From contig OY820579.1 of NCBI GenBank assembly GCA_963681965.1, positions 2,976,001-3,040,000 of the forward strand: 64,000 bases of DNA. The letters are read 5' to 3'. A model generated the notes under the pieces. It searched no databases. It saw only the letters and a program-made list of their open reading frames with translations, and was not told the DNA's origin. Below are positions 3,314 through 55,167 of this stretch, piece after piece. The translations under genes and the position numbers were made by a program. Source of the DNA: a bacterium. GTDB taxonomy: Bacteria; Electryoneota; JAOADG01. Each line of letters begins with the position of its first letter. Position 1 is the first letter of the stretch.

Positions 3314-4549
3314 CTATTTCAGTAATTGAAAACTCTTAACGGTAGTTAGACCATCCCCTTTTAACTGATAGTAGTAGGTTCCCGATGCAAGATCATTTCC
3401 TTGAAAGCGGATCGAATGCTCGCCTGCCGAATAATTATTCTCCGACAATACTCGCACTAATCGACCATTTGCATCGAATATCGAGAGTTTGATCAATCCC
3501 GGTTTGCGAAGCGAAAACGGAATTTCAGTAGCGTTATTAAATGGATTGGGATAATTTTGTGCCAATGAAAAAGTCGTCACCATCGGTTCGACGGTCTCAT
3601 CGATTCCGGTGAAATTCGTAGCAGCGAGCCAAAGCGAGGCGTTCGTAAACAATTTTCCGTGATTTCCACTCGCATCGGTCCAACCGTAATAGAGCTGATC
3701 GCCGGTATCTCCTGTTCCATCGTCGCACGGTGAACTATCGCCAATTCCCACTACTTTTCCGCGACCATACTGCGCATACGCAACCATCACATTCCAATTG
3801 TCTCGCGACGAATACCATACTGCTCCCCGCACCGTCGGATTATTGGTAGTACTGATCGTTAAAGTAGTTCCGGCATCGAAATTGAATTGGGTGACTGTTC
3901 CGGCTGCTCCCCGAATGATCGAGTCCGAAACTGCAGTATCCATTACATAACTGTCGTATGAATAGCTATTTAAATTAAATAACATTCCGAACGGATTCGC
4001 TTGAACCGAATTTGTGCTCATCAAATCATTCCAAGCGTGGGGCGAATCAATACCATCGTTGTTTCGGTCGGAACCATTGTGATCAGCCACCATAAACAGA
4101 CTTCCCCCGGCAGCGACAAAATTGATAATTGCAGATTTTTCGGTTGTACTAAAAGAGCTATTCGGTTCGACAACAACAAAGACATCGTAATTGGACAAAT
4201 CTTGCACATTCGATCGACTGCCGTACGTAATCGCGCCACTAATGGGCAGCGTCTCGATAATATGACCACGTTTCACCAGCTCAACCCCCCAAGACGAAAT
4301 CGCACCGGACCAATAGGTTTCGGGAGTTGAAGCAGTGATTCCCGATTGCGCTGGAGTGGGAATGCGTTGTGGATTTGACTGACCACCGGTCTGAGTATCA
4401 GCATCGATTACCCAATCGGCATTGGACGCCATCTCAGCTTTCGTGGCATCGAACAGGAATTTTCGTGCAAAAGCGGTCTGCTGTAAGTTCAATCCTAGGA
4501 TTACCAGAATTGCACCAATAAAAATTCGAAACATAAGGGGACTGCGCAT
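3314..4549 (-). CDS. Secreted protein with a GATase1-like alpha/beta domain and T9SS-like C-terminal sorting domain
   Basis: Signal peptide, FDATKAE...NADWVID, DLSNYDVFVVVEPN...FVAAGGSLFMVADH, and CTD LAQNYPNPFN...ASGTYYYQL...FQLLK. The start is uncertain (4549 or 4534). Confidence 0.7.
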   Translation of the reverse strand: MRSPLMFRIFIGAILVILGLNLQQTAFARKFLFDATKAEMASNADWVIDADTQTGGQSNPQRIPTPAQSGITASTPETYWSGAISSWGVELVKRGHIIETLPISGAITYGSRSNVQDLSNYDVFVVVEPNSSFSTTEKSAIINFVAAGGSLFMVADHNGSDRNNDGIDSPHAWNDLMSTNSVQANPFGMLFNLNSYSYDSYVMDTAVSDSIIRGAAGTVTQFNFDAGTTLTISTTNNPTVRGAVWYSSRDNWNVMVAYAQYGRGKVVGIGDSSPCDDGTGDTGDQLYYGWTDASGNHGKLFTNASLWLAATNFTGIDETVEPMVTTFSLAQNYPNPFNNATEIPFSLRKPGLIKLSIFDANGRLVRVLSENNYSAGEHSIRFQGNDLASGTYYYQLKGDGLTTVKSFQLLK

Positions 4550-4602
4550 GGGACTTCCTAAAATCGGTAATTGAGATCGTCTCAATTCTATCGTGATAAG
4601 AT

Positions 4603-4678: not shown

Positions 4679-5356
4679 TTAGCGTGGTTTCTCGATGTTC
4701 TTAATCACAGTTTCCGGAGTACCGGGGAGACCGTTCACACCAATGTATTCAACAAACAATCCATCGGATCGAAACCGGTACCGACCATGCCAAAAATGCG
4801 AAAAGAGACCGGTAGGGTGAACAATCATGTCGGTATTGTGATCAGATTTGACTGTTTCATCCCGTTCCGCTTCCAATTTCACTGAGCTAAACTGATCTGG
4901 ACGATAAACCCAAAAATCAATCGATTGAGTCACCCGATTTGAGATTATCGCATGTCCAAGACAAAATGGAATTGACTGAAACCAAGGTTTTTCATCGATA
5001 TCAACAGATTTATCGATGTATTCACCTTTGAATTTCCCTTGAAATTGAATTGTGTTCCCGATCCTTGTCGCAGAGTAGTTTGATATTCCATCAGTCGACT
5101 GATAATGTAGCGAAATCGTTGCAAACAGTGAATCGTGTTCGAATGTGAAGGTCTCATTCGGTCGAACTACAGTCAATCGATTTTTCGCTTCGGGAAAGTA
5201 CTCCCAGTGAATATTTACGGTATCCGATCCGGTTGTCTGTTGGAAGTAATATTTACCGCCGCCGTATACAAGTGGATTTGCCGAAAACGAATAGTTCGAA
5301 TTGGCAAATAACAGTACGAACAATACGATTATCAGGTTGTTTTGCTCAAGTTTCAT
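4679..5356 (-). CDS. Hypothetical exported protein
   Basis: ATG at 5356 gives MKLEQNNLIIVLFVLLFANS, a signal peptide. The longer ORF-track start overlaps add and is rejected. Confidence 0.65.
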   Translation of the reverse strand: MKLEQNNLIIVLFVLLFANSNYSFSANPLVYGGGKYYFQQTTGSDTVNIHWEYFPEAKNRLTVVRPNETFTFEHDSLFATISLHYQSTDGISNYSATRIGNTIQFQGKFKGEYIDKSVDIDEKPWFQSIPFCLGHAIISNRVTQSIDFWVYRPDQFSSVKLEAERDETVKSDHNTDMIVHPTGLFSHFWHGRYRFRSDGLFVEYIGVNGLPGTPETVIKNIEKPR

Positions 5357-5416
5357 AAATCGAGTCACTTTTTCCGTTTGTAAAGTAATTCCAATAGAAA
5401 GATCAGTGCAAACAAC

Positions 5417-5445
5417 TTGCCGAAAGCAATTTGCGGTATTATACT
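5417..5445 (+). promoter_or_regulatory. Sigma70-type promoter of add
   Basis: TTGCCG-N17-TATACT ends 11 nt upstream of the add ATG. Confidence 0.55.
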
Positions 5446-5456
5446 GAACGCTCACT

Positions 5457-6566
5457 ATGAACGAGAAAATACCCCCCCCACATGCACCGGTTCTTGAACC
5501 GGCTCGAGATGTCGCTCGCGACAATCGCGAATTAACCCGAGAGATTGTACTGAAATGGCCCAAGACCGATCTTCATTGCCATCTCGACGGATCTGTCCGT
5601 TGTCAAACGGTATGGGAACTCGCACAAGATCAGAGCATCACCCTTCCTGCTCAATCCTTGGAAGAGTTAGAAAATCAACTAATCGTTGGTGATCGCGCTC
5701 AGAACCTCCGGGAGTATCTAGAACCATTTCACATCGTCAATATGGTTCTTCAGGAAAAATCTGCACTCGAACGTGCTGCTTTCGAACTTGCCGAGGATGC
5801 GTGGTTGGAAGGCGTCTGGTATATCGAGGTGCGCTTCTCCCCGATCCTACACATCCATCACGGGCTTCGACTCACTGAAATCATGGATGCAGTACTCGCT
5901 GGTTTAACCCGTGCCGAACGACAATATGGTATTCGCACTGGTGTGATCGTCTGCGGTATTCGATCAATCGAACCGGAAGTATCGCTACGATTGGCTGAAC
6001 TGACTGTTGCATACAAGAATAAAGGTGTGGTTGCATTCGATTTAGCTGGTGCTGAAGACAATTATCCAGCGAAAGACCATGCCGACGCATTTTATCTGAT
6101 CCGAAAAAACAACATTAATTGTACTGTTCATGCCGGCGAGGCATGGGGACCCGATAGTATAAGCCAAGCTTTGCACAGTCTGTCTACCCATCGAATTGGG
6201 CACGGCACCCGGTTGAAAGAAAATGGCGACTTACTGAATTATGTCAATGACCACCGCATTGCGATGGAAATTTGCGTGACTTCGAACGTTCAAACGAAAG
6301 TCGTCCCGAGTTACGAACAACATCCAATCCGATTCTATTACGACTGTGGTCTTCGCGTGACCATCAATACCGACAATCGAACCATCAGTGGCGTCTCGAT
6401 CACCGATGAATACATGCGGATTCACGAACGGTGTGGTCTCACCCGAGGCGAATTGGAAGATATTGTGATCATGGGTTGGAAAGCGGCATTTTTACCTTAT
6501 CGCGAAAAAGCGATCTTGTTGAAACGGGCACTCAAAGAGATGGAAAAAACTCGAGTTCCCTTCTAG
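5457..6566 (+). CDS. add: Adenosine deaminase
   Basis: PKTDLHCHLDGS, FDLAGAE, TVHAGE, RIGHG, EICVTSN and TINTDN motifs. Confidence 0.93.
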   Translation: MNEKIPPPHAPVLEPARDVARDNRELTREIVLKWPKTDLHCHLDGSVRCQTVWELAQDQSITLPAQSLEELENQLIVGDRAQNLREYLEPFHIVNMVLQEKSALERAAFELAEDAWLEGVWYIEVRFSPILHIHHGLRLTEIMDAVLAGLTRAERQYGIRTGVIVCGIRSIEPEVSLRLAELTVAYKNKGVVAFDLAGAEDNYPAKDHADAFYLIRKNNINCTVHAGEAWGPDSISQALHSLSTHRIGHGTRLKENGDLLNYVNDHRIAMEICVTSNVQTKVVPSYEQHPIRFYYDCGLRVTINTDNRTISGVSITDEYMRIHERCGLTRGELEDIVIMGWKAAFLPYREKAILLKRALKEMEKTRVPF

Positions 6567-6587
6567 ATTTAAATGACAATTAGATAC

Positions 6588-6620
6588 AATAAGGCGGGGC
6601 ATGTGGACCCGCCTTATTTA
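6588..6620 (+). terminator. Intrinsic terminator after add
   Basis: AATAAGGCGGG...CCCGCCTTATT inverted repeat. Confidence 0.75.
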
Positions 6621-6886
6621 TCGAGCCTGATTATCATTATTTACTGTCGTTTTTTTTGAATTGTGACAAAGAAACGAGTTATATTAAAGGTTCATTACTA
6701 CAATTCAATTCAACCAATACATCGGCGATTCTTTTCGAAGTAACCGAAATTAAAATTCGGCAAAATCATTCGAAATTGCGATTATTGGAAATTCTTCGTC
6801 GCAACATTAGCAGAAAACTGCGTTAACGCATTTCAGCAATAGAGCAAATGCAAAAAGTTTCAGTAACGTTTTTGGGATCGTTCACG

Positions 6887-8947
6887 ATGAAAAATCGATA
6901 CTCCGGATCACACTCCTGGCAGGTAATAATCTTAGCACTGCTACTCACTGCCTCACTGGCTAGTGCACAAATCAGATCGATCTATGATGTGATGTACAAT
7001 CCAGCGAATCCAGGCGGTCCATCGCCATTTGCAGGTCAACGTATTCAAGTTACCGGCATCGTTACCAACACCGCAATCAATGCCAATGTCGTCGGTGGAG
7101 ATTTCAGTTTTTCGATCCAATCCCGAGGCGATACAACGGCATTTCACGGTTTGTTCGTTATCAGCAGCAGCTTGAATCCGCAACATTTAGTAACAGTTGG
7201 CGATTCAGTGATTATTACCGGTCGTGTTTCGACAACCGCACCGACTAATATCAAAGTTTCTTCGACCGATCAAATCCAGATCGTTTCGGCTACTGGCTGG
7301 ATACCGACCAATCCCGTGTTCGATATGACAGTTTTAACCAACGAAGATAGCGCAAAAACATATTCAGGTATGTATGTAAAGGTCGCAAATCCGATTATCC
7401 AGACGATTGCTACAGACGGTGCAACTCTGACCAATCGTTCTGTTTCGCTGCTGGTAGGTGGTGGTGGCAGTAGTGGTCGTTGGACTTATCAGTTAACAGT
7501 TGGTGATTCACTCAATTGGATTGGCGGGACCCTTCGAAAAAGCACTGCCGGTTGGATGCTGGAACCGCGCGGTGACGCCGACTTCCTTCCCTACGGTAAT
7601 TTACCTCCGGTACTATCGCAAATCGATGCCACTCCGAACCTCCCCACTCCGGACGATCACGTTGTTTTCAATGTGAAAGTGACAAGCGCACAATCACAAA
7701 TTAATCAAGTCTGGTTGACTTATTTTATTAATGATATCCGGCAAGATTCAATCTTGATGCACAAAGCCAATGGTGCGAACGATTCAATTTATACGGCAAC
7801 TGCCGGTCCCTGGTGGCGTGGTGCTAGTTTGCGTTTCCGTGCCAAAGCCAAAGATAACAACAATTTGATCAGCTCCAGTTTCGAAAAATCGTTTACTGTG
7901 AATTTTCCCGGTGGATTGCTGCCATTCAAGTATATCGCCGACAACATCGACACTTTCTTGAATACGACTCAGACGCTTGATGGTATGGTGGTTTACTATC
8001 AACTTCGGTCGGGACGTACCGACGCTTACTTCGTCGATACTACTTTTACTTACACTTTTGGTTCCGATACGATCCGTAGTGTGGGTTTGTATATCAGTGA
8101 ATCCGGTGCACCATCGACTTTCCCCAATTTGAAACGGGGAAACTACATCCGAATGCCATCAGCAATCAGTTACTACGCATACTCCAATCCAACTTCCTAT
8201 TCATTGCAGGTAACTGGATTGACTAATGCAACTGTGCTTGCATCTGACTTGCCGTTACCACGACCGACACGGTGTCGAACTGGCGATGCGCCACTATTGA
8301 ATAAACTGATCTCCTGCTCGAAAGCACCTTATTACAATTCAGGATCGTGGTTGGAAGTAACAGGGCGCATCATCACTGTAAATCCTACTTCCGGTGGTGT
8401 CAACCTATTGGTGGATGATGGATCGGGAACATTACCCATCCGCATCGTCGACGGCTCAAACCTCCGCTATGTCCGGGCATACAATCCCGATACTTCTGTA
8501 CACGACTCGATTCCATTATCGCAAATGGTTAATCGGTTGTACCGAATTAGAGGTGTGGCATCCAAGTATTATACCGATTTCCAGATGGCAGTTGGATTTG
8601 CCGATGATATCGTTGAATACGATCCTAAAGTCGGCGATACCGATGAACCGATCATTGACGTGCCGGCACGGGTTTTGGTCAACGACCTGAATGAACAGAT
8701 GACTATTCGCTACGGTGGAAAATCCGGTAGCCGAATTCAGCTCCGTGTATTCAATTTGAAGGGGCAAGTCGTTGCAACACTCGCCGATCGCACTAGTAAT
8801 GGTATTGCCGAGATAACTTGGGATGGTCGAAACGACCTACGTGAAAAGCTTCCGCTCGGAACCTACATCATTCAAGTTGTAACCAACACGAATGGCAGTA
8901 CTAAGAGCGCGTTAGCACCGATCGTTATTGGCACTAAACTGAAATAA
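6887..8947 (+). CDS. Secreted multi-OB-fold protein with Ig-like domain and FlgD-type (type B-like) C-terminal sorting domain
   Basis: Signal peptide ending ASA/Q. OB-like units SPFAGQRIQVTGIVT...VGDSVIITGRV and SWLEVTGRI...LLVDDGSGTL. CTD RVFNLKGQVVATL...ITWDGRN...GTYII. Alternative start at 6848. Confidence 0.7.
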   Translation: MKNRYSGSHSWQVIILALLLTASLASAQIRSIYDVMYNPANPGGPSPFAGQRIQVTGIVTNTAINANVVGGDFSFSIQSRGDTTAFHGLFVISSSLNPQHLVTVGDSVIITGRVSTTAPTNIKVSSTDQIQIVSATGWIPTNPVFDMTVLTNEDSAKTYSGMYVKVANPIIQTIATDGATLTNRSVSLLVGGGGSSGRWTYQLTVGDSLNWIGGTLRKSTAGWMLEPRGDADFLPYGNLPPVLSQIDATPNLPTPDDHVVFNVKVTSAQSQINQVWLTYFINDIRQDSILMHKANGANDSIYTATAGPWWRGASLRFRAKAKDNNNLISSSFEKSFTVNFPGGLLPFKYIADNIDTFLNTTQTLDGMVVYYQLRSGRTDAYFVDTTFTYTFGSDTIRSVGLYISESGAPSTFPNLKRGNYIRMPSAISYYAYSNPTSYSLQVTGLTNATVLASDLPLPRPTRCRTGDAPLLNKLISCSKAPYYNSGSWLEVTGRIITVNPTSGGVNLLVDDGSGTLPIRIVDGSNLRYVRAYNPDTSVHDSIPLSQMVNRLYRIRGVASKYYTDFQMAVGFADDIVEYDPKVGDTDEPIIDVPARVLVNDLNEQMTIRYGGKSGSRIQLRVFNLKGQVVATLADRTSNGIAEITWDGRNDLREKLPLGTYIIQVVTNTNGSTKSALAPIVIGTKLK

Positions 8948-8999
8948 GTGTCATTCAAGAACATGATGCAAGTATTCGGTATCTAGGAATTTCGACCAA

Positions 9000-9929
9000 A
9001 TGAACCGATTTTTGGAAATTTTGTTGACAAGGAATGCAATCGTGAGAAACAGCCGTTTCGTATCAATGGCGATTATCGGTGCCAGTTGGCTGATTGTCGC
9101 TTCTTTCGCGTACGCCCAAGTAACCACCGACATCGAACCGCCACAACCGCGATTCGCCGCAATCGGCGCAACAGTGGCAATGGCAGGTGACCCGGCAATG
9201 GCTTTTTTCAATCCAGCAGGATTGACCGGTATTAAAGCACCTTCATTTAATTGTGCCTTTACTCGCCCCTACGATCAGAATTTTTTGACGGTATATCATG
9301 TCACGGCTGCGATGCCGTTACCGAAAAATTGGGGTGTTGCTGGCGTTTCAATTTTGAATAGCGGCGTCAAGTATGGCGGACAATCGTTAAGCAATGAGAC
9401 TGCGGTTGCTTTAGCACACGCAATTACGCTTCAACGCGATATCAATACCGACCTCACTTTCGGATACGCTATTAAAGTGATGTCTCAGAGTTTTGGAACT
9501 TCGCTGGCTGGTGAAGATCTTGGAAGTTCAACTTCTTTCGGTATCGATGCCGGTGTGCGTGCAACACTGTGGCAGCGTACACGCGTAGCGTTCCATATCA
9601 CCAATATCAATCGTCCTGAGATTGGAACGACTGAACCACACGATTTACCCGCAGTGGTTAACGTCGGTCTTGCCTATACTCCCTATCGCGGTGTCTACAG
9701 TGCGATCGAATTGGAACGAACGCTGGGTAATGAACAATTGTTGAAAGGCGGCTTCGAATTTGAAGTCGATCCTCACTTCGACCTTAGAATTGGCATTCGA
9801 TCCAACCCGAACCGGATTGCTTTCGGTTTTGGCATCAAACAGATCATGAATGCTCACGTCGATTACACTTATTTGACTCACTCGTCGCTTCCGGCGACGC
9901 ACATGATCGGATTTGGCTATGATTTCTAA
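9000..9929 (+). CDS. PorV/PorP-like outer-membrane beta-barrel
   Basis: Signal peptide, RFAAIGATVAMAGDPAMAFFNPAGL (FadL/PorV-superfamily NPA motif), alternating beta-strands and C-terminal ...GFGYDF. Confidence 0.75.
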   Translation: MNRFLEILLTRNAIVRNSRFVSMAIIGASWLIVASFAYAQVTTDIEPPQPRFAAIGATVAMAGDPAMAFFNPAGLTGIKAPSFNCAFTRPYDQNFLTVYHVTAAMPLPKNWGVAGVSILNSGVKYGGQSLSNETAVALAHAITLQRDINTDLTFGYAIKVMSQSFGTSLAGEDLGSSTSFGIDAGVRATLWQRTRVAFHITNINRPEIGTTEPHDLPAVVNVGLAYTPYRGVYSAIELERTLGNEQLLKGGFEFEVDPHFDLRIGIRSNPNRIAFGFGIKQIMNAHVDYTYLTHSSLPATHMIGFGYDF

Positions 9930-12537
9930 TATCGTCAACGGGCGCATTCTGGCAGGAATTGCCGTTGGCGTGTTGCTGATGTTGATTCCGGTCGCGTTCG
10001 CACAAGTCGAAGTCGATGAACCCGGTTCTCCGGTTTCGTTGTCCGACTCATTGAAAACAGTTACCGGCAGCCAGATCGACCTGAATATGGCTTCCAGGGA
10101 TCAATTAATCGGAATTGGATTGACTGAAGCAGAAGCCGATGCGATTCTCGATCATATCCTGATGGAAGGACCGTACGAGAATTTTTACGAACTTTACGAT
10201 ACCGAAGGTTTACCCCAAGAAACGGTCGAGCGAATCGGTCCTAAAGTAATCGTTCGGATGCCAGGAGTGGATGATCCAGTCACACAACGACGCGAAGCAA
10301 ACGCATATCGCATCGAACAACTTGTAAGTGACGAAGGATTCAGTGAAGGACTGGCAGATCAATTGGCAGATCAAATTCTTGACCCAATTGATGTGAATTC
10401 CGCTACTGAAGAAGAATTGACCGATATTCAAAATGTCTCGCCGATCGATGCCGCAGCAATTGTTAAGCGCATTCGAAGCGGCAACCCGATAAAAAGTGCA
10501 CGCGAGCTTCGCCAGACACCGGGACTATCGCATTACGGTTATATCAATGCGCGACCCTATGTCAATTATGAACCGGGTATCGGTTTTCAACAAGTTCACG
10601 GTTTCTTCCAGACCCGTCTGTTCGATACTCCCTATCTTCCCGATAATTCGGCATCGATTCGCGACGATGCGCCGACCAACCGCTTGGATCTCAACGCAAA
10701 ACTTCGATTGAATTATCTGAAATGGAAATTCGGTGTAGCAACTCATCGCGCGCGTAATGAAGATTTCCTCTATGACCATACTTTCGGTTCGTTCAGCACA
10801 CCTCAAGGAAAGATTTTTCTTGAAAAGGACTATACAAAATTGGGTCCAGTCACTTTCAAGAAATTAATACTGGGTAATTTTCAAGCTGGATTCGGACAAG
10901 GTTTAATTTTCTCCAGCGGCGACTATTTTCAACCGCGGCAAACCGGATTTGGATACAGCAAGTCGATCAATGGGGTGTTAGGCGACTTGTCGGCATCCAA
11001 TGAATTTGCCTATCGCGGTGCCGCATTCGAAGGTCGCGGCGGTCCATTCGAATTCACAGGTTTATACTCCAGTACTTGGAAAGACGCGGTGCTGAATACC
11101 GACGGTACGGTGAATCGATTTATCGTGATGCAGCCTCGATATGTCTACGATGCCCGTCCACCGATGGATACGATGTATGTTGTTGTCGACCCGAATACCA
11201 GTATTTCCGATACGATCCGTACAAAAGTAGATCGATTTCCCGGTATTCAATCGTATTTGAGTAACACCCGGGAAAACATTTTCGCCGGTAATTTGCAGTT
11301 TATTCCGGCAGTCGGCGTCCGCCTCGGTGCGAGCTGGGTTGAAGCGCTTTACAGCCGTCCGATTCGCGCGCAGCTCGATACGACTACGCTCGTCAACGGC
11401 AGCGATATGCAACAAATGGATGATTACTTTCCCGATATCGAAATCTCGGAAGGTTATTCCAATGCCTCCACCAGCAAACTGTGGAGTGGCGCAAAATCAC
11501 GAATGCGCATTTATGGTTTCGACTGGCAGTTTGTTTACAAGAATTTCTCGTTCCAAGGCGAATACGGCGAACAAGAACATAAAGGGAGTTTCTGGAGAAT
11601 CGGTGACGATCCTCACGGTTTTGTTTCATCGCTGTATGCCCAGTATTCTTCGCTCAATTTGCTACTCCTGTATCGCGATCGAAACGTCGGTTACGACAAT
11701 ATCTACGATCGCGGTTATGCAAACTATTCCCGATTCAAGAGTTCGATTTTCGGCGATGAGTTTTATTTAAAAGACGTCGTGATTGGTCAGCTTTACGACA
11801 ATTCGTTCCAACCACAACCGGAACGCGGCTGGTTTTTGTCGGGACGATATCAGGTTCTGCGTCAATTGATCACCAGTTTCGAACTGGATCAGTGGACCCG
11901 CACGAGCGACGATGCCGAGCATTACCGCTGGGTTATGCGACTTCAGTACCGTCCGATCTTCCCGTTATCGTTCAACTTGCGACTATCCGATCAGGCACGC
12001 GACTATCAGAATTCGGAAAATCCACGCTATTACCGTGCAATGCAAGGTCGACTACAGACGAACGTGCGTTTATCGAATTACGATCAGGTATCATTCCTTT
12101 ATTCTTATTCAGTAACTCAGTTCGCGCCACGTCCCCGACTCTTCTACGATGCGCTACCCGATGGCAAGTCACCGGTTAGCGGTCAGGGAACTTCGCCTGC
12201 CGAAGCATTTGGGATGTCGTTCCGACATAATTTGAATCGGTCGCTCTGGATCGGTGCCGGTGGAACGATGTATGACGGCTTCTTCTGGAATTATGAAGAA
12301 GGCGACTTCTACATTCGTGACGGAAAAGGGATTCGCTTCTATGGCGCGATCGGATCGCATCTCGGATCGGGAGTGTATGTCAAGGCGAAAGCCACCACGG
12401 AACACCCTTTGACTATTACGAATATGGTTGCCCGCAAATACAATTCGTCAATCGCGAGTGATGGTAAAATCCACGTAGGCGATAATGTTGCCAGCGACGA
12501 CTTGAGTTTCCGAATTCAACTCGATTATTCGTTCTGA
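9913..12537 (+). CDS. Helix-hairpin-helix (ComEA-like) domain outer-membrane beta-barrel protein
   Basis: Signal peptide, two HhH units (IDLNMASRDQL..., IDVNSATEEELTDIQNV...ELRQTPGL), LGNFQAGFGQGL, an aromatic-rich barrel region and C-terminal LDYSF. Confidence 0.75.
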   Translation: MAMISNIVNGRILAGIAVGVLLMLIPVAFAQVEVDEPGSPVSLSDSLKTVTGSQIDLNMASRDQLIGIGLTEAEADAILDHILMEGPYENFYELYDTEGLPQETVERIGPKVIVRMPGVDDPVTQRREANAYRIEQLVSDEGFSEGLADQLADQILDPIDVNSATEEELTDIQNVSPIDAAAIVKRIRSGNPIKSARELRQTPGLSHYGYINARPYVNYEPGIGFQQVHGFFQTRLFDTPYLPDNSASIRDDAPTNRLDLNAKLRLNYLKWKFGVATHRARNEDFLYDHTFGSFSTPQGKIFLEKDYTKLGPVTFKKLILGNFQAGFGQGLIFSSGDYFQPRQTGFGYSKSINGVLGDLSASNEFAYRGAAFEGRGGPFEFTGLYSSTWKDAVLNTDGTVNRFIVMQPRYVYDARPPMDTMYVVVDPNTSISDTIRTKVDRFPGIQSYLSNTRENIFAGNLQFIPAVGVRLGASWVEALYSRPIRAQLDTTTLVNGSDMQQMDDYFPDIEISEGYSNASTSKLWSGAKSRMRIYGFDWQFVYKNFSFQGEYGEQEHKGSFWRIGDDPHGFVSSLYAQYSSLNLLLLYRDRNVGYDNIYDRGYANYSRFKSSIFGDEFYLKDVVIGQLYDNSFQPQPERGWFLSGRYQVLRQLITSFELDQWTRTSDDAEHYRWVMRLQYRPIFPLSFNLRLSDQARDYQNSENPRYYRAMQGRLQTNVRLSNYDQVSFLYSYSVTQFAPRPRLFYDALPDGKSPVSGQGTSPAEAFGMSFRHNLNRSLWIGAGGTMYDGFFWNYEEGDFYIRDGKGIRFYGAIGSHLGSGVYVKAKATTEHPLTITNMVARKYNSSIASDGKIHVGDNVASDDLSFRIQLDYSF

Positions 12538-12559
12538 TGATATTAACTATTTCTAATTT

Positions 12560-12593
12560 CAAGAAAAACCTGCTTGATAGCAGGTTTTTCTTG
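12560..12593. terminator. Intrinsic terminator closing the 6887-12537 operon
   Basis: CAAGAAAAACCTGCT-TGAT-AGCAGGTTTTTCTTG perfect 15-bp stem. Confidence 0.85.
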
Positions 12594-12648
12594 TTATAGA
12601 TTGAAAGAGTTCATTGAAATTGCTCAAATACGATGAAAGGAAACGACT

Positions 12649-15600
12649 ATGTATAATAATTCTAATTTCATCAATATGTTTGTGTTAAGTTCATACATCT
12701 CAATTTTAACTATCATTATGACCTGTCCTTCATCTACTTTCGCCCAATCTTGGGAATGGCAGAATCCATTGCCAAATGGTCATTTGTTAATGTCTTCTTC
12801 TTTCGTCGGTTCGAGCAACGGATGGGTTGTTGGTGCCTTCGGAACAATCTTACACACTACAAATAGTGGGTATTCATGGATTAATCAAACTTACAATGTT
12901 TCAATTCAACTTAATAGTGTATCATTCGTCGATTTACGCAATGGATGGGCAGTTGGGTGGTACGGTAATATAATTCACACTTCTAACGGTGGATTATCAT
13001 GGATAAATCAAACAAGTAATGTTTCAGTCAATTTGATAGATGTACTATTTTTAGATTCTCTTCACGGGTGGACAGTCGGAGCCAGTGGGTCAATTCTTCA
13101 TACCGATAATGGAGGGACAACATGGTCTCAGCAATCTAGCGCATCGACGAGCACTTATGAATCAATTTCATTTGTTAACTCTAATATTGGTTGGATCTGT
13201 GGGAGTGATGGATCAATCCTGCATACTATTGATGGAGGTTCAACATGGACGATTCAAACGAGTACAACAACAAATACACTTTTCTCAATCAAGTTTATTG
13301 ATGTAAATAATGGATGGGCTTCGGGAAATTACGGGACGATCATTCACACGACCAATGCAGGTTTAACTTGGATTGCTCAGCGGTCAGGATACGAGAATTC
13401 GCTAACTTGTGTAAATTTCTTCGACGGAAATAATGGATATGCAATTGGAACACTTGGTATGATTTTACACACATCGAATGGTGGAAGCACATGGATCAAC
13501 CAGTCTTACAATCTACTGAGTACATTTCGGACTATTGACCAACTCTCCACCGATACATTATTAATTTGTGGATCTGGCAATGTGATTCTTCGATCTGTCG
13601 ATCAAGGTGCATCTTGGGTTAGAATAAATTCATCTGGAAATATAAGTTATCTTACATCCATTGCCTGTACAGATTCAAACAACATATGGGTAGCTGGGGA
13701 ATTTGGTACAATTCTACATTCATCAAATAGTGGATTCGCTTGGATAAATCAAGAAAGTGAAACCGTAAATGATCTATATGGAATTACTTTTTTCGATACA
13801 TTTACGGGTTGGGTCGCTGGACAAAATGGTACAATCCAACATACTACTAATGGTGGATTGACTTGGTTTTGTCAAAATAGTGGTGTAACTGACGAACTAT
13901 TAGCAATAGCTAATTTTGGCTTGAACCATGTTTGGGCAGTAGGTTCAAATGGAACGATCGTTCACACTTCCGATGGGGGAAGCACTTGGTCAATTCAGGC
14001 GAGTGGAACCACAAATCAGTTAAAAAGCGTTTCGTTCATTGATAGCCTTAGAGGTTGGGCTGTGGGAATGCCTGGATCATTGGGTGTCCCTGGAGTTATT
14101 TTAAGGACTATTAATGGAGGTTTGAGCTGGGTTACAATTTCTAGTAGTACTTCGAACTATTATTATTCAATCAAATTTCTTGATTCTTTATCTGGGTGGT
14201 CTGCCTCATATATGCCAATGCAGGGACGTTGCATTGTATCTCAAACTACTGATGGAGGATATGGTTGGTCACTGAGAGGGTCAATTCAAAATTATTTAAA
14301 TTGTATCACTATGTCTGATAATTCGCATGGATGGGTTGTAGGTGCAAACGGTACTATTATGGCCACATCAGGTACTGGATGGGTTGCTCAGACAAGCGGA
14401 ACTACAAATAAATTACTTGGTGTTGCTTGTTCGGGTAGGTATGCATGGGCAGTTGGAACCGATGGCACTATTTTACGATTTCATCCACAATATCAACAAC
14501 CATTAACACTTGAAAGTCCGAACGGTGGTGAACATTTCACACTCGGCAATTATTTCATTCACTGGAATGCACAATCTGTAACCGGAAATCTTCGAATTCA
14601 ACTCAATCGGAATTATCCTCTTAGTACGTGGGAAGATGTTGGAACGGTTAATGCAAGTTTAAATCTTTTCAATTGGCATGTCACTTCACCATTAACCACC
14701 CATGCTCGGATTCGAATCCTTAGCATAGAGACACCTTCATATGGGGATACAAGTAATGCTGATTTCAGTATAGCGAATAATTCATTGTCTCTTCTTCACC
14801 CATTAGCTGGTGATACGTTGATAAATTTCTCAGTTGATACTATCCGTTGGCAATTCTTTGGATCGACTGATAATATCCGCATTTCTATTAACTATAATTA
14901 CCCATCAGGTGAATGGGTACCGCTTCAGACACTTCCATCTTCTCGAACGTACTATTTATGGACTCTCAACGGACCAGTTAGCAGCAATGTTAGAATCAGA
15001 GTTTTAACAGATACAAGTCCCTCGGTTGGTGATACCAGTAATTCAAATTTCTCGATTGTGAATCCCACATTGCAACTACTATATCCTTACGGGGGAGAAA
15101 TCCTTGCAAGATCAACGACTGAATCGATTAGATGGACTTATTCCGGACCACCGGTTTCATTCCAAATCGCTGTTAATTATACATATCCATCGCAAAACTG
15201 GGTATCATTACAAATGATATCTTCAGCCTATCGCAGACATGCATGGTTTATCGATGGTCCAAATAGTACTAATGTCAGAGTAAGATTGATTTCGAATACT
15301 AATCCGGCATTCGGCGATACTTCTGATACCGATTTTTCAATTCAAAATCCCTCGATCCGAATTACTTATCCGAACGGTGGTGAAATCTGTAGCAGTTCGC
15401 AAGTAGTTATTCGGTGGAATCATGCATTTATAGCAGATACTTGTCACATTCAACTTGAATATGATCGGAATTTTCCCAGCAGTGGTTGGACAACGATCAG
15501 TAGACCATCTGTGTACCCAGATTCTTTCGTTTGGCAACTCCCTTTTCTATCCTCATCGACAGTTCGTATCAGAGCTTTTTTGTTGAACAATACCTCTTTT

Positions 15601-15933
15601 TGCGACACGAGCGATGCCAATTTTTCGATCCAATATTCAGGGATTAATGAAGACGGATCGGAATTGCCGCACTCATTCTCTCTCAATGACGGGTTCCCCA
15701 ACCCATTCAATTCGAGTATCGACTTCAGAGTCGCAGTGCCTCAAGCTGCATTGGTTGTGATAAAAGTATACAATCATCTCGGTCAGGAAGTTGCTACACT
15801 TACAAATGAACGTCTTGAGGTCGGCTACTATATATTTCAGTGGAGACCGACGTATTGTAGTTCAGGGATCTATTTTGTAAATATGAACTCGGAACACTTT
15901 TCGGTTGTTCGAAAAGTGAGTTATATTAAGTAA
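12649..15933 (+). CDS. YCF48/BNR-repeat beta-propeller protein with four Ig-like repeats and T9SS-like CTD
   Basis: Many GW.VG..GTILHT.NGG.TW repeats, four PNGGE...GDTS..DFSI modules and CTD GFPNPFN...SSGIYFV...KVSYIK. Confidence 0.85.
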   Translation: MYNNSNFINMFVLSSYISILTIIMTCPSSTFAQSWEWQNPLPNGHLLMSSSFVGSSNGWVVGAFGTILHTTNSGYSWINQTYNVSIQLNSVSFVDLRNGWAVGWYGNIIHTSNGGLSWINQTSNVSVNLIDVLFLDSLHGWTVGASGSILHTDNGGTTWSQQSSASTSTYESISFVNSNIGWICGSDGSILHTIDGGSTWTIQTSTTTNTLFSIKFIDVNNGWASGNYGTIIHTTNAGLTWIAQRSGYENSLTCVNFFDGNNGYAIGTLGMILHTSNGGSTWINQSYNLLSTFRTIDQLSTDTLLICGSGNVILRSVDQGASWVRINSSGNISYLTSIACTDSNNIWVAGEFGTILHSSNSGFAWINQESETVNDLYGITFFDTFTGWVAGQNGTIQHTTNGGLTWFCQNSGVTDELLAIANFGLNHVWAVGSNGTIVHTSDGGSTWSIQASGTTNQLKSVSFIDSLRGWAVGMPGSLGVPGVILRTINGGLSWVTISSSTSNYYYSIKFLDSLSGWSASYMPMQGRCIVSQTTDGGYGWSLRGSIQNYLNCITMSDNSHGWVVGANGTIMATSGTGWVAQTSGTTNKLLGVACSGRYAWAVGTDGTILRFHPQYQQPLTLESPNGGEHFTLGNYFIHWNAQSVTGNLRIQLNRNYPLSTWEDVGTVNASLNLFNWHVTSPLTTHARIRILSIETPSYGDTSNADFSIANNSLSLLHPLAGDTLINFSVDTIRWQFFGSTDNIRISINYNYPSGEWVPLQTLPSSRTYYLWTLNGPVSSNVRIRVLTDTSPSVGDTSNSNFSIVNPTLQLLYPYGGEILARSTTESIRWTYSGPPVSFQIAVNYTYPSQNWVSLQMISSAYRRHAWFIDGPNSTNVRVRLISNTNPAFGDTSDTDFSIQNPSIRITYPNGGEICSSSQVVIRWNHAFIADTCHIQLEYDRNFPSSGWTTISRPSVYPDSFVWQLPFLSSSTVRIRAFLLNNTSFCDTSDANFSIQYSGINEDGSELPHSFSLNDGFPNPFNSSIDFRVAVPQAALVVIKVYNHLGQEVATLTNERLEVGYYIFQWRPTYCSSGIYFVNMNSEHFSVVRKVSYIK
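14500..15635 (+). repeat. Four tandem ~90-aa Ig-like modules
   Basis: Each unit reads P(N/Y/L)(G/A)G(E/D)...I(R/H)W...(N/D)(R/Y)(N/T)(Y/F)P..W...RIR...DTS..(D/N)FSI. Confidence 0.75.
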
Positions 15934-18511: not shown

Positions 18512-19345
18512 TTACTTAACCTCTTTATGATCCTTCTTTCCATCGTCTTTGCAGTCGCCCTTGCAATCGGTTTTCTTGTCTTTGCAGTCGCCCTTGCAAT
18601 CGGCTTTCTTATCTTTGCAGTCGTCCTTGCAATCGGCTTTCTTATCTTTGCAGTCGTCCTTACAATCGGCTTTCTTGTCTTTGCAGTCGCCCTTGCAATC
18701 AGCTTTCTTGTCTTTGCAGTCGTCCTTGCATTCAGCTTTCTTGTCTTTGCAGTCGCCCTTACAATCGGCTTTCATTTCGTGTTTGCCGTCTTTGCAATCC
18801 TCAGTCTTTTCGACTTTAGCTTCTTCATCTGGACATTTCGTATTAAGCACTGCAAAAACCTGACCGGACTTTGGCGTCAGCTCAACACCACTGGCGACCA
18901 TCATCATCATTTTCCGGGGACCTTTGATTTCGCCTAAATTCATTCCTTCTTTCGCGAAATGCTTCAACATTTCTTCCGGCATATCCAATTCTTTTACCAC
19001 ACCCATCGCGCGCACGCTTGCACCCGCAGCATTTTTCGGCATAAAGAATTTTTCGCCCTGCGCTTTAACAAATAAATCTTTATCGCCGTCTTTGATGATA
19101 ATCCAGCAACCGGCACTTTGACAGACAGTGGTGACGATTCCGTCGATGATAATAGGATCTTTCGATGGTTTCAGATCGATGAGTTTCATCGTTTTAAGAT
19201 CGCCAATCTTCTCGCCGCAAGATAGCGGTGCCATTGCCTTCATGGCAGCAGGTTCTTTTGCCGATTTCATTTCTTCGGCATTCACAGCCAATACTAGTGA
19301 TGCCAAAATTAAAATCGAGATTGCGATCGAAATAACACGCTTCAT
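18512..19345 (-). CDS. DUF4920-like OB-fold periplasmic protein with Cys/Lys/Asp tandem-repeat tail
   Basis: Signal peptide, GIVTTVCQSAGCWIII...FFMPK...ASGV (DUF4920 pattern), then seven K(A/T)(D/E)CK(G/D)DCKD(K/D) units. Confidence 0.8.
   Translation of the reverse strand: MKRVISIAISILILASLVLAVNAEEMKSAKEPAAMKAMAPLSCGEKIGDLKTMKLIDLKPSKDPIIIDGIVTTVCQSAGCWIIIKDGDKDLFVKAQGEKFFMPKNAAGASVRAMGVVKELDMPEEMLKHFAKEGMNLGEIKGPRKMMMMVASGVELTPKSGQVFAVLNTKCPDEEAKVEKTEDCKDGKHEMKADCKGDCKDKKAECKDDCKDKKADCKGDCKDKKADCKDDCKDKKADCKDDCKDKKADCKGDCKDKKTDCKGDCKDDGKKDHKEVK
18542..18772 (-). repeat. 7 x 33-bp coding tandem repeat
   Basis: Contiguous near-identical units of CTTGTCTTTGCAGTCGCCCTTGCAATCGGCTTT with no spacers. 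Confidence 0.95.
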
Positions 19346-19361
19346 TAATGAATCCTTCCCT

Positions 19362-22148
19362 TTACTTTATGATTACAAATTTACCCTGAGTGATCGACCC
19401 GTTGTGTTCCGGAGTTAGATCTTCCACTGAAAACAGATACAAACCTGCCATTACCTGCTGATCGTTGCGGTTCTTCAAGTTCCAATTCTCAGCATAGTCA
19501 TAAGTAGCACCGATATTACGGTCTCCTTCGATATTATGCGGAATGGCAGCCACTAAATCGCCACTGACGGTGAAAATACGAATAAGCGCCTTTCGAGGCA
19601 AATTGTAAAAATAGATCCGCCGGTCTTCTTGCGGGAAGAAATCGGGTGTTCCATCATCGCGATTTTCCCAGGCAAGACCATTTCCATGTGTTTTCGTATA
19701 ATCGACATCGAATCGATAGGGATTCGGCACTACACCGACTTTCCGCATCGATGTATTGTATGAAGGTGCAGTCAATTTCATATTCGAGACTTTTCCAGTC
19801 TCCAGCGACATCGTTCCAGTTTTATAATCACCAAAATCGAATGCAGTCACCGAATAATATCGTGGGATCAATGGTGGAATTCCGTCGACGATGTAATGGT
19901 AACTCGAATCGACCGGATTCCAGAGTTGATACCGCACGCCATTGGATACGTAAGATGCTTCTTTGATACCCCGATTGATATTTACTCGCCGCCAGACATA
20001 GGTTTCACCCTTAATCACTGTATCCGGTTTCGAGCGAATCGTATCGGGCATTGACACCAATGAATCGGTAATTCGATCGTAAAAGGCGTAATCCATTCGG
20101 TCAAATACCGCCAACAACGAGAATTCATTCTCTAAACCGGATTCTGAAACGTAGATTCGGTACCCTTCAAAATCGTGCAATCGCGAAAACGGATCCAGAT
20201 TGATTGAAGTGTCTTCCGATGGGGTCGGTTTCCAAATGATCTCGATCTGATTATTGCGCGATTCGACAGTTATTCGCGGTATCGGCGGCGGCGGCGGACC
20301 CCGGAAATCGTAATCGCCATCACCCGGGTCCAGCATACCATTGTCTTTCATATAATCGAGTCGAGGTGGATACCAAGGGTGCGTATCTTCGGTCAAGCCC
20401 TGTGATGCCCACTCAACATGGTCGGTACTACGTAATGAATCGATGCGACCGTTATTTTCCGTTCCGTCGGGATCCGGGCGAAGATACCGTCCACGCCAAA
20501 TACCTTCAATGACGACACTATCGGTAGGTGTGGTCCAATACAAACCGTCGGAACCGGCATCTTCACCGAACCATCCGTCACCATTCGGATAATTTCGCGT
20601 CTTTGTGTCGTACATCGGATTGTCATATACCCGCGCAGCCCAATCTGCCGCATATTGAATCGTTCCAAAGTTGTAAAGATTTCGATTGAGTCGAGTACAA
20701 GAGATCTGTGCCGAATCCGGATTATGGAATGCCAATCCAGCCACAAAGGCGACTGTCATCGAGAATTTCTCACCGGGATTTAACCGGTAAACTCGGTCAC
20801 CACCCGGTCCAGGTCCATCGTAAATTCCCAATGGTCCCCATGACAACAAGTACCGGGTATCATACCCTTTCGCAATGTCTTCCTTGACTTCATCTTTTGG
20901 CGCTCGCCATTGATGCGCTGGAATGCCGGGATGATCCAGATCGGGTTGCGAATGCGATTGGATATATGTCAGATCGTTTGTTAATACCTGATCGTAATCG
21001 AATTCGCGATTCGACAAAACGTCGTATTTCCGCTCATCGCCCATCGGGGTTCCGAATGTCGATGTCCAAGATTTTGAATCCTGCCATGCTGGTCCAAAAT
21101 CTAAATTTTGGTTATTGTTGGATACCCACCAATTGAAACTGGTTTTGAGACGCGGATTGGGTGCTCGAAGAACGCGAGACCCTAACACATGAGGAACTGT
21201 AAAATCGCTACCGGAACAAACTCCAGGGGGTCGCCCATCGCCATCTGCGATATATGCGACATTCACAACCGAACTGTCATCACTCCCATCAGCCCGCTTG
21301 AAATAATAATATCGTTGAAATCCACAGATATCGTCAGTTTGATACACACCTGGAACTTCTCCGACGCCCCCGACATCACCATCGACATATAGACCAATGT
21401 ATAAGTTTTTTAAATAGTTCGAAGCAATATTTTCAAATTCCCAATCAAAAAAGATAAAGTCTTTCGCATAGGAATATGAAAAAGCATATGATCGTTGCGT
21501 TACTTTAATGCCTAAGGGATAGTGCGGTCCGTCGATCGGATCGGTTGCCACAAAAAACTGATCGGTTAAAGTATCCGAATAAGTCATAATAAAGTCTTGT
21601 TCAGATACCGCTTCCGGTGAGCTTACATAGTCCCCGAGCCGGTTGAAATAATTCTCGCGAGTCGATCGTTCGATAATTCCACCGCGCGATCCTTCCGCTG
21701 GCCAGAGTTCGATAATATTTGTATTGGCAGACGTGCGGACCCATCCATCCGATCCAACCGAAACTCGCGGAAATTCTCGGTTGTCTTTTTGTACCATAGC
21801 ACCAATCCAGAGCGATGCCATGTACATATAAGATTGACCCGATCCAGCCGGATACATTGCCTGAGGTGCATACGTTCCGGGATATTCCGGATCGGTCATA
21901 GCATTCGAATTACGGGTCGAGTAATTACCGATAAACCCATAATTTGTCACATTCATCCAGAGATTGCCGACGCGATGAACGCGATTGTTCACATTCGGAT
22001 TGGCAATTTGAATTTGTGACACCCCTTTTCGAACTGGTCCGCGTTCTTCTTCGATCTCGGCACGTCCAATAGACACCCAGCTAAAGAAGAAAGAACAGAT
22101 CAGAGAAGTACGTAATAATATAAAAAACAATAGTTTCATTATTTTCAT
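19362..22148 (-). CDS. Large secreted protein of unknown function with FN3-like region and PNPY-type C-terminal sorting domain
   Basis: Signal peptide, RVHRVGNLWMNVTNYG, DFEGYRIY, YYSVTAFDFG and CTD VVPNPY...IYFYNLP...IRIFTVSGDLV...GLYLFSVE...GKFVIIK. Confidence 0.75.
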   Translation of the reverse strand: MKIMKLLFFILLRTSLICSFFFSWVSIGRAEIEEERGPVRKGVSQIQIANPNVNNRVHRVGNLWMNVTNYGFIGNYSTRNSNAMTDPEYPGTYAPQAMYPAGSGQSYMYMASLWIGAMVQKDNREFPRVSVGSDGWVRTSANTNIIELWPAEGSRGGIIERSTRENYFNRLGDYVSSPEAVSEQDFIMTYSDTLTDQFFVATDPIDGPHYPLGIKVTQRSYAFSYSYAKDFIFFDWEFENIASNYLKNLYIGLYVDGDVGGVGEVPGVYQTDDICGFQRYYYFKRADGSDDSSVVNVAYIADGDGRPPGVCSGSDFTVPHVLGSRVLRAPNPRLKTSFNWWVSNNNQNLDFGPAWQDSKSWTSTFGTPMGDERKYDVLSNREFDYDQVLTNDLTYIQSHSQPDLDHPGIPAHQWRAPKDEVKEDIAKGYDTRYLLSWGPLGIYDGPGPGGDRVYRLNPGEKFSMTVAFVAGLAFHNPDSAQISCTRLNRNLYNFGTIQYAADWAARVYDNPMYDTKTRNYPNGDGWFGEDAGSDGLYWTTPTDSVVIEGIWRGRYLRPDPDGTENNGRIDSLRSTDHVEWASQGLTEDTHPWYPPRLDYMKDNGMLDPGDGDYDFRGPPPPPIPRITVESRNNQIEIIWKPTPSEDTSINLDPFSRLHDFEGYRIYVSESGLENEFSLLAVFDRMDYAFYDRITDSLVSMPDTIRSKPDTVIKGETYVWRRVNINRGIKEASYVSNGVRYQLWNPVDSSYHYIVDGIPPLIPRYYSVTAFDFGDYKTGTMSLETGKVSNMKLTAPSYNTSMRKVGVVPNPYRFDVDYTKTHGNGLAWENRDDGTPDFFPQEDRRIYFYNLPRKALIRIFTVSGDLVAAIPHNIEGDRNIGATYDYAENWNLKNRNDQQVMAGLYLFSVEDLTPEHNGSITQGKFVIIK

Positions 22149-55118: not shown

Positions 55119-55167
55119 AGCTCACTAATTCGTTCGCGAAATGAGCGGAAACATCAGGAGTAATCTT

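Follow-up and report, generated by a model that had tools for sequence, protein, structure and literature searches.

What is the function of the three adjacent genes at positions 6,887 to 12,537 of a 64,000-nucleotide stretch of DNA (the window) from an Electryoneota bacterium (GenBank assembly GCA_963681965.1, contig OY820579.1, positions 2,976,001 to 3,040,000)? Gene 1 encodes an exported protein with OB folds and a sorting C-terminal domain (CTD), gene 2 a small barrel and gene 3 a large barrel with two HhH units at its N-terminus. A preliminary description of this DNA had proposed that a surface binder held by the small barrel passes DNA or RNA to the large one, whose HhH units would act as a periplasmic ratchet similar to ComEA. 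We find that the module is real and strongly conserved, and that the trio, on balance, probably lies at the heart of a locus with which FCB-group bacteria scavenge nucleic acids, uptake being passive and driven by hydrolysis in the periplasm. The proposed route from OB binder to barrel stands with regard to synteny, the large barrel, the OB folds, the pairing of cargo and barrel and the link to nucleases, whereas the ComEA-like ratchet is doubtful and a connection to the upstream add gene is not supported. The gene trio and the HhH-barrel family are apparently undescribed so far; a literature search, with most subscription papers outside its reach, returned nothing describing an HhH-barrel or such a trio.

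A genome scan for the module gave 552 pattern matches, 538 of them confirmed as relatives, and the best 80 loci were retained. Two broader alignments were too diverse to serve as the seed, which was narrowed to one subfamily, and the retained loci lean towards that subfamily. Phyla are given as labelled by the depositors; 34 of 83 loci are unlabelled and some labels look doubtful. Across many FCB-type lineages the order of the trio is nearly fixed. Gene 2 lies directly ahead of gene 3 in all 74 loci with enough upstream DNA, and a cargo gene with the same special tail as gene 1 directly precedes gene 2 in 69 of 70 informative loci, the single miss having just 553 nt of upstream sequence.

In the window, the three genes are co-oriented and tightly packed, as first described, with a 52-nt gap between genes 1 and 2 and an 11-nt overlap between genes 2 and 3 (Table 1), and a three-gene operon is plausible. 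The open reading frame of gene 1 opens at 6848, and its 686 residues are counted from the second ATG (6887); the true start of gene 2 may be a later codon than 9000. Both flanking hairpins are real by RNA folding, and the one after add insulates the module on the upstream side, while a consensus terminator scan picked up neither hairpin (6588, 12560). An Rfam scan of positions 6400–12800 found no riboswitch and no other credible RNA; its sole match (E 0.09, below the gathering score) overlaps a terminator and was dismissed. The suggestion that add ties the module to nucleoside salvage has to be given up: a terminator separates add from gene 1, and none of the 80 loci contains an add homologue (0/80). 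The window genes at 3314–4585, 4679–5563 and 12649–15933 also have no homologue in the 80 loci.

The genes around the trio in its relatives link it to nucleic acids. Downstream of gene 3, a FadL-like barrel is encoded in 65 of 74 informative loci and a member of the 5′-nucleotidase family in 53 of 61. Counted over all 80 loci, nucleotidase-family genes occur in 57 (18 as fusions of a nucleotidase N-terminal domain to EEP), EEP genes in 19, endonuclease I in 3, ComEC-like MBL genes in 9 and ABC sugar-type binding proteins (SBP_bac_1; closest to UgpB, below cut-off) in 13. The nuclease families differ between clades and represent clade-specific additions. Inspected by eye, the nucleotidases examined start with plain signal peptides and lack a CTD, and the N-termini of the EEP and MBL proteins resemble those of lipoproteins. 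The conservation of nucleotidases and nucleases beside the trio backs the nucleic-acid role first ascribed to the module. The FadL-like barrel (e.g., L001:12497-13798 and L036:12396-13694) is closest to BamG in two of four members tested, with E-values of 1e-20 to 1e-22 that are far below cut-off; it may conduct nucleotides or anchor some other protein. In locus L008 (13762-15663) and 17 others, a clade-specific fusion joins the metallophosphoesterase domain of the 5′-nucleotidase N-terminus to an EEP nuclease domain, and an EEP lipoprotein gene mostly follows it. A stand-alone lipoprotein with a ComEC-type MBL domain occupies different locus positions in two clades (L001:659-1954, L036:13698-15113). 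L010 and L034 lie on contigs of one assembly (CAJXJG), where the locus is present twice, as paralogues or because the bin is mixed. Additional cargos with lamin-tail domain (LTD) and OB units and type A tails often flank the core trio in relatives, and a second gene-1-like cargo of this flanking type is encoded in the window itself (55141–56778, plus strand; lamin-tail domain, a DUF5689-like OB pair and a type A CTD, no catalytic domain).

The AlphaFold model of gene 1 (pLDDT 90.2, 48-row alignment) agrees with the initial view of OB-fold units and a sorting CTD without a catalytic domain, and shows four OB folds, an Ig domain and a CTD. In the VIA structural search, the OB folds match RPA (residues 28–137, Z 11.4), the OB domain of AsnRS (142–237, Z 11.1), MCM (341–454, Z 10.9) and Stn1 (458–582, Z 10.9), while residues 238–341 form an Ig/FnIII domain (Z 12.7) and residues 585–684 a PorU-like CTD (Z 11.1). 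The best Foldseek match is the tandem-OB p204 HINab–dsDNA complex (5z7d, E 8e-8), which, given a TM-score of just 0.18, is a likeness at the domain level. PDB sequence searches gave matches limited to CTD, FlgD and Ig. None of the 48 aligned rows contains a catalytic Pfam domain, and no catalytic fusion to the C-terminal module is present among the 120 listed of 340 longer homologues, about 100 of these 120 being close variants of one marine form. DUF5689 matches 7 of the 48 rows, all weakly and below cut-off, and does not match the window's own protein. Most relatives add a lamin-tail domain to the cargo, which results in the LTD and OB set of Xds, where the OB domain is required for activity and the LTD is dispensable (PMC6746945).

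Gene 1 scores below the curated cut-offs of TIGR04183 (19.6, cut-off 23) and CHU_C (18.7, cut-off 27) and is not matched by TIGR04131; since its fold matches the PorU CTD, its C-terminal domain works like a CTD. The tail motif, P-aliphatic-aliphatic-aliphatic-G, is unlike the K..LLK of type A cargos. A CTD profile matched 118 complete plus-strand proteins across the 80 loci plus the window's first 25 kb, and the 79 with the special tail all sit 0.9–4.3 kb upstream of gene 3; the remaining 39 comprise 38 with type-A-like tails and 1 with a variant of the special tail. Because the profile was built from these same genes, the independent test is the tail motif and not the score. The special tail is also present in 120/120 of the homologues listed (the best 120 of 340). 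Across loci, the N-terminal domains of the cargo vary and the CTD is constant, and in some clades two tandem special-tail cargos share a single gene 2 barrel (L001:5129-6259, L020:4991-6115, L042:4056-5765).

Gene 2, originally taken for a PorV/PorP-like barrel of some 300 residues, is indeed a small barrel of this size. It matches the NCBIfam PorV/PorQ family with an E-value of 6e-14 and PorP far more weakly (E 0.005), and it reaches none of the curated cut-offs (PorV/PorQ family, 52 bits against 90; PorP, 16 against 90.55; PorQ, 14 against 220). NF033709 is matched by 57 of 59 gene 2 family members, below cut-off. The family profile finds PorV in the PDB (6h3i_F, E 2e-4), while a PDB sequence search with gene 2 alone gave no match. 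Gene order and tail motif back the proposed pairing of surface binder and small barrel as cognate partners, and by analogy with known cargo–barrel pairs we infer that gene 2 may be a dedicated shuttle or anchor that binds gene 1. A complex prediction for the gene 3 barrel (residues 222–872) and gene 2 (residues 41–309) returned no answer (runs 0.45, 0.00 and 0.00) and carries no weight either way.

Gene 3 combines two HHH_3 stretches with a barrel of about 24 strands, counted from the DSSP list of the AlphaFold model (mean pLDDT 65.9, pTM 0.63, long loops below 50; 15-row alignment), and so has the architecture first assigned to it, an approximately 870-residue barrel with two N-terminal HhH units. 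A signal peptide, hydrophobic parity in each strand, short turns with long loops and a C-terminal aromatic residue identify it as an outer-membrane barrel; since short turns alternate with long loops, both termini, and with them the HhH pair, are on the periplasmic side. In the VIA search it matches outer-membrane barrels with Z 12–14, best of all PapC (Z 14.3, rmsd 5.0, 361 residues aligned), FimD (Z 14.2) and OmpG (Z 13.8). Residues 49–113 match ComEA (8dss) with Z 11.8 and an rmsd of 1.1. HHH_3 is present in all 59 gene 3 family members, in which Pfam leaves the barrel uncovered and matches are limited to HhH families; a PDB sequence search likewise returned HhH matches alone. At least 80% Lys/Arg is found in 34 of 624 barrel columns (71 full-length sequences), and of the conserved basic positions on strands 17 have lumen parity and 4 lipid parity. 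This Arg/Lys pattern fits a polyanion path. One relative of 1251 residues (P0091) has a TolB-like, TPR-looking region (read by eye) ahead of the HhH-barrel.

The family reaches far beyond the window. A gene 3 profile search found 187 representatives at E < 1e-30; Atlas clusters fall in Fidelibacterota, Cloacimonadota and Bacteroidota, and further records are labelled Marinimicrobia (Fidelibacterota), Zixibacteria, Krumholzibacteria, Eisenbacteria, KSB1 and Gemmatimonadota. The window's barrel searched directly against plasmids gave no match. Three records from gut Bacteroidales were reached via an intermediate (P0136), a link that profiles then bore out. In Parabacteroides, the protein shares homology with gene 3 over HhH1 and about half of the barrel (HH probability 99.4), and its gene is preceded by a gene 2 homologue (98.2); in Bacteroides finegoldii the barrel is present and a neighbouring gene 2 homologue is missing. 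The Bacteroidales proteins differ in having one HhH unit alone, with no OB cargo annotated adjacent and no function found in print. PG1035 was considered as an HhH barrel and rejected; it is a type B cargo.

Table 1. Positions of the module and its parts within the window
Feature	Position	Strand	Description and evidence
Intrinsic terminator after add	6583..6622, core stem from 6588	+	RNA fold -21.4 kcal/mol, z -4.21, 0/200 shuffles as stable
Gene 1, exported T9SS-type cargo (T9SS, type IX secretion system)	6887..8947	+	Signal peptide, four OB, Ig/FnIII, CTD; AlphaFold, structure search, Pfam
Gene 1, first OB-OB pair	6974-7594	+	AlphaFold model, structure search
Gene 1, Ig/FnIII domain	7595-7906	+	AlphaFold model, structure search
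Gene 1, second OB-OB pair	7919-8620	+	AlphaFold model, structure search
Gene 1, CTD, sorting domain of distinct subtype	8654-8944	+	Tail motif, PorU CTD match
Gene 2, small barrel of the PorV/PorQ superfamily	9000..9929	+	309 aa; NF033709 and PorV profile matches
Gene 3, large barrel with N-terminal HhH pair	9919..12537	+	872 aa; AlphaFold model, structure search
Gene 3, HhH1	10072-10257	+	Model; ComEA 8dss match
Gene 3, acidic linker	10258-10377	+	Model
Gene 3, HhH2	10378-10569	+	Model
Gene 3, barrel, ~24 strands, C-terminal Phe	10597-12534	+	Model, DSSP strand list
Bidirectional-type intrinsic terminator, closes operon	12560..12593	+	-22.9 kcal/mol, z -7.70, 0/200 shuffles as stable

For a scavenging locus, these features suggest the following scheme. 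Gene 1 would be secreted by the T9SS, and its special CTD would be held at the surface by the gene 2 barrel, a step for which the folds come from the models and the pairing from the analogy to type B cargo and PorP. Outside the cell, DNA or RNA may then be bound, but not cut, by the tandem OB pairs. The cutting would fall to secreted and lipoprotein nucleases, whose genes lie next to the module in many relatives and here presumably elsewhere in the genome, and the Arg-lined barrel of gene 3 would let oligonucleotides pass the outer membrane. Since no TonB-type plug is seen, transport would be passive; periplasmic nucleases and the 5′-nucleotidase would provide the pull, and nucleosides and phosphate would be imported across the inner membrane. 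The periplasmic HhH pair would more likely serve as an acidic gate or docking module than as a ComEA-type ratchet, and the second hairpin of HhH2 is a possible residual nucleic-acid site. Overall, the neighbours point to nutrition over transformation. Sediment bacteria that forage on DNA pair secreted nucleases with periplasmic nucleotidases (PMC8289736).

Several observations weigh against this scheme. The loops of the gene 3 barrel are poorly modelled, and the model thus does not establish an open pore. The barrel also contains 27 conserved acidic columns. Its 34 basic columns exceed those of the gene 2 family (2/297) and the FadL-like family (3/445), which counts in favour of the scheme, but the control is weak, since the comparison barrels are plugged FadL types and not open channels. 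The OB domains of gene 1 are acidic in homologues (median net charges -7, -10, -4 and -7) and close to neutral in the window's own copy; OB folds also bind sugars and proteins. The window's 11-member clade has neither the FadL-like barrel nor the nucleotidase beside the module (L078 is uninformative), and a FadL-like homologue is found nowhere in the window. In two annotated Bacteroidales records there is no annotated nuclease near the barrel (the third record is unannotated). Finally, the nucleotidase label needs just 2 changes on the tree (FastTree, no bootstrap), which means that the linkage is largely one inherited arrangement and not many independent events. It is old and retained across roughly 30% identity.

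The first HhH unit of gene 3 is acidic (net charge -9), as had been pointed out at the start; among the 71 homologues, the net charge is below zero for HhH1 in 62 and for the linker in 69, and HhH2 has a positive charge in 31 and a negative one in 28. A set of 80 more diverse proteins with two units gives median net charges of -2 for unit 1 and +2 for unit 2, and four distant relatives (P0136, P0152, P0158 and P0162) have a strongly basic first unit (+7 to +13). Transformation of Vibrio cholerae is abolished when its ComEA has the K63E change or a disturbed GIG (PMC3879209). By our own mapping of positions through alignments, the K63-equivalent of HhH2 is Asp in 71/71 homologues (60/63 in a broad alignment), and that of HhH1 is mostly Gln, with Lys in 9/63 of the broad alignment. 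The GIG hairpins are lost, with Ser, Thr or Pro at the G60-equivalents. Thermus thermophilus 2duy has Leu at the K63-equivalent, so Lys at this position is not universal. The second hairpin of HhH2 retains R198 (68/71), R195, R212 and an aromatic pair. Judged from these residues, the loss of the GIG-Lys signature and the acidic first unit make a ComEA-type ratchet doubtful, although the units may still contact nucleic acid.

Of the rival accounts the one that survives best, itself improbable, is a pilus-independent competence pore, which would thread long DNA through the barrel of gene 3 and pass it on to ComEA/ComEC for transformation. The fusion of ComEA-fold HhH units to an usher-sized barrel, the basic first units of the distant relatives and the ComEC-like MBL lipoprotein in 9 of 80 loci are consistent with it. 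Porphyromonas gingivalis, moreover, needs ComEA and ComEC, and its outer-membrane step is stated to be unclear (PMC11532111), and ddb-type systems serve both feeding and transformation (10.1101/2025.03.18.642099). Against a pore for transformation stand the invariant Asp at the K63-equivalent of HhH2 and the adjacent nucleases, which would destroy transforming DNA. No comEC, dprA or comF was recognised among the annotated neighbour families, annotation having covered part of the open reading frames, and transformation in Riemerella relies on a TonB-type barrel with a DUF5689 protein (PMC8459023).

Less probable still is a role in surface display or envelope biogenesis. Gene 3 would here be a platform or export barrel that, together with gene 2 and the BamG-like neighbour, displays adhesins or nucleases; the HhH units would dock proteins, and nothing would be imported. 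GspK and PsbU use HhH units without binding DNA, and 7 of the 59 gene 3 members show a weak T2SSK match. The acidic HhH1 and linker, the cargo with variable N-terminal domains on a fixed CTD and the BamG resemblance would suit such a role. The ushers are the best structural matches of gene 3, but they are tied with porins within 1 Z unit, so that the match reflects size alone, and no usher plug, POTRA or pilin genes were seen. The proposal leaves the Arg ladder and the nucleotidase linkage unexplained, and B. finegoldii has the barrel without an adjacent gene 2 homologue. That the solute taken up is some other polyanion or phosphorylated compound (polyphosphate, fragments of teichoic acid or phospholipid, nucleotide sugars, acidic glycans) is very unlikely: an Arg-rich lumen suits any polyanion, UshA-type and EEP enzymes are broad in substrate and the linked ABC binding protein is nearest to UgpB, but HhH, OB/DUF5689, LTD, endonuclease I and ComEC-like MBL point together to nucleic acid.

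A more ambitious version of nucleic-acid uptake, itself unlikely, would make the HhH-barrel family a third outer-membrane DNA route, independent of pili and secretins and of TonB and ancestral to the FCB group. Its supply would come from an OB antenna that the T9SS displays and that has a sorting code of its own; an acidic HhH plug that mimics DNA and docks on the Arg ladder would be its gate, and it would serve both transformation and feeding. As it stands, the scavenging reading gives a testable role to a widespread, unnamed family of outer-membrane barrels. If correct, sediment and ocean lineages would forage DNA or RNA with a transporter unlike TonB-dependent or pilus systems, the T9SS would have one more pair of sorting signal and shuttle, and there would be a candidate for the way in which DNA passes the outer membrane in Bacteroidota without pili, a step so far unexplained.

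Three other exported proteins in the window, all on the minus strand, deserve mention. The protein encoded at 3314–4585 is a cargo with a type A CTD and a DUF4350/ABC_transp_aux-like domain, which occurs in secreted nuclease-associated proteins. At 19362–22148 lies the gene of an exported protein of 928 residues without a Pfam or NCBIfam match; it has a CTD-like end with yet another tail type, and no PorV-like gene was seen adjacent. The exported protein encoded at 18512–19345 ends in a Cys/Lys/Asp-rich repeat run and possibly binds metal.

How does the trio compare with known systems? In Bacteroides thetaiotaomicron, the ddb locus (ddbABCDEF) encodes homologues of a Riemerella barrel and DUF5689 protein, DdbC and DdbD, along with nucleases, for DNA metabolism (10.1101/2025.03.18.642099 = PMC12478041). 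A tandem-OB surface binder (DdbD; DUF5689, HIN-like) is thus encoded there together with an outer-membrane barrel and secreted nucleases. The trio shows the tandem OB units and the HIN similarity, with DUF5689 below cut-off as noted above, and linked secreted nucleases accompany it in most relatives, whereas in the window and its clade none lies next to the module. By this analogy, the two loci likely share a purpose. They differ in the proteins used: DdbC is a TonB-dependent transporter (TBDT) with DdbD as its predicted partner, whereas the barrel of gene 3, with its roughly 24 strands, matches no TBDT domain and bears an HhH pair at the N-terminus; the binder, in turn, is a cargo of the T9SS that has a PorV-like anchor of its own. 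None of the 59 gene 3 members matches a TonB plug or carboxypeptidase-regulatory-like domain, and the N-terminus folds as HhH.

Riemerella anatipestifer needs the same three ingredients for transformation: a barrel, a DUF5689 OB protein and an HhH protein (RA0C_RS04915/04920/02645), with no pilus; the screen in that study covered 3000 mutants (PMC8459023). That barrel is of the TBDT type with a carboxypeptidase-regulatory-like domain, and the HhH protein, compared with gene 3 by description only, is separate, predicted to be periplasmic and has three HhH domains (PMC8459023). Type B cargo genes of the T9SS are directly followed by their cognate PorP/SprF shuttle (PMC12618676, PMC9143113), and in our module, too, a cargo gene precedes what would be a dedicated small-barrel shuttle or anchor. 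In contrast to these pairs, the CTD of gene 1 is a PorU-like Ig sandwich with its own tail that scores below both type A and type B cut-offs, and gene 2 is nearer to PorV/PorQ than to PorP.

The PapC and FimD ushers resemble gene 3 in barrel size, but identity is 9–14% at an rmsd of about 5 Å, and gene 3 has no plug or chaperone-binding domains; none of the gene 3 members has an usher Pfam match, and no pilin genes occur among the annotated neighbours. With ComEA, gene 3 shares the HhH2 fold and the predicted periplasmic location, yet its units are fused to a barrel, the GIG hairpins and the key lysine are replaced and unit 1 is acidic. By the features tested, the trio lies outside the DdbCD, ComEA and usher families.

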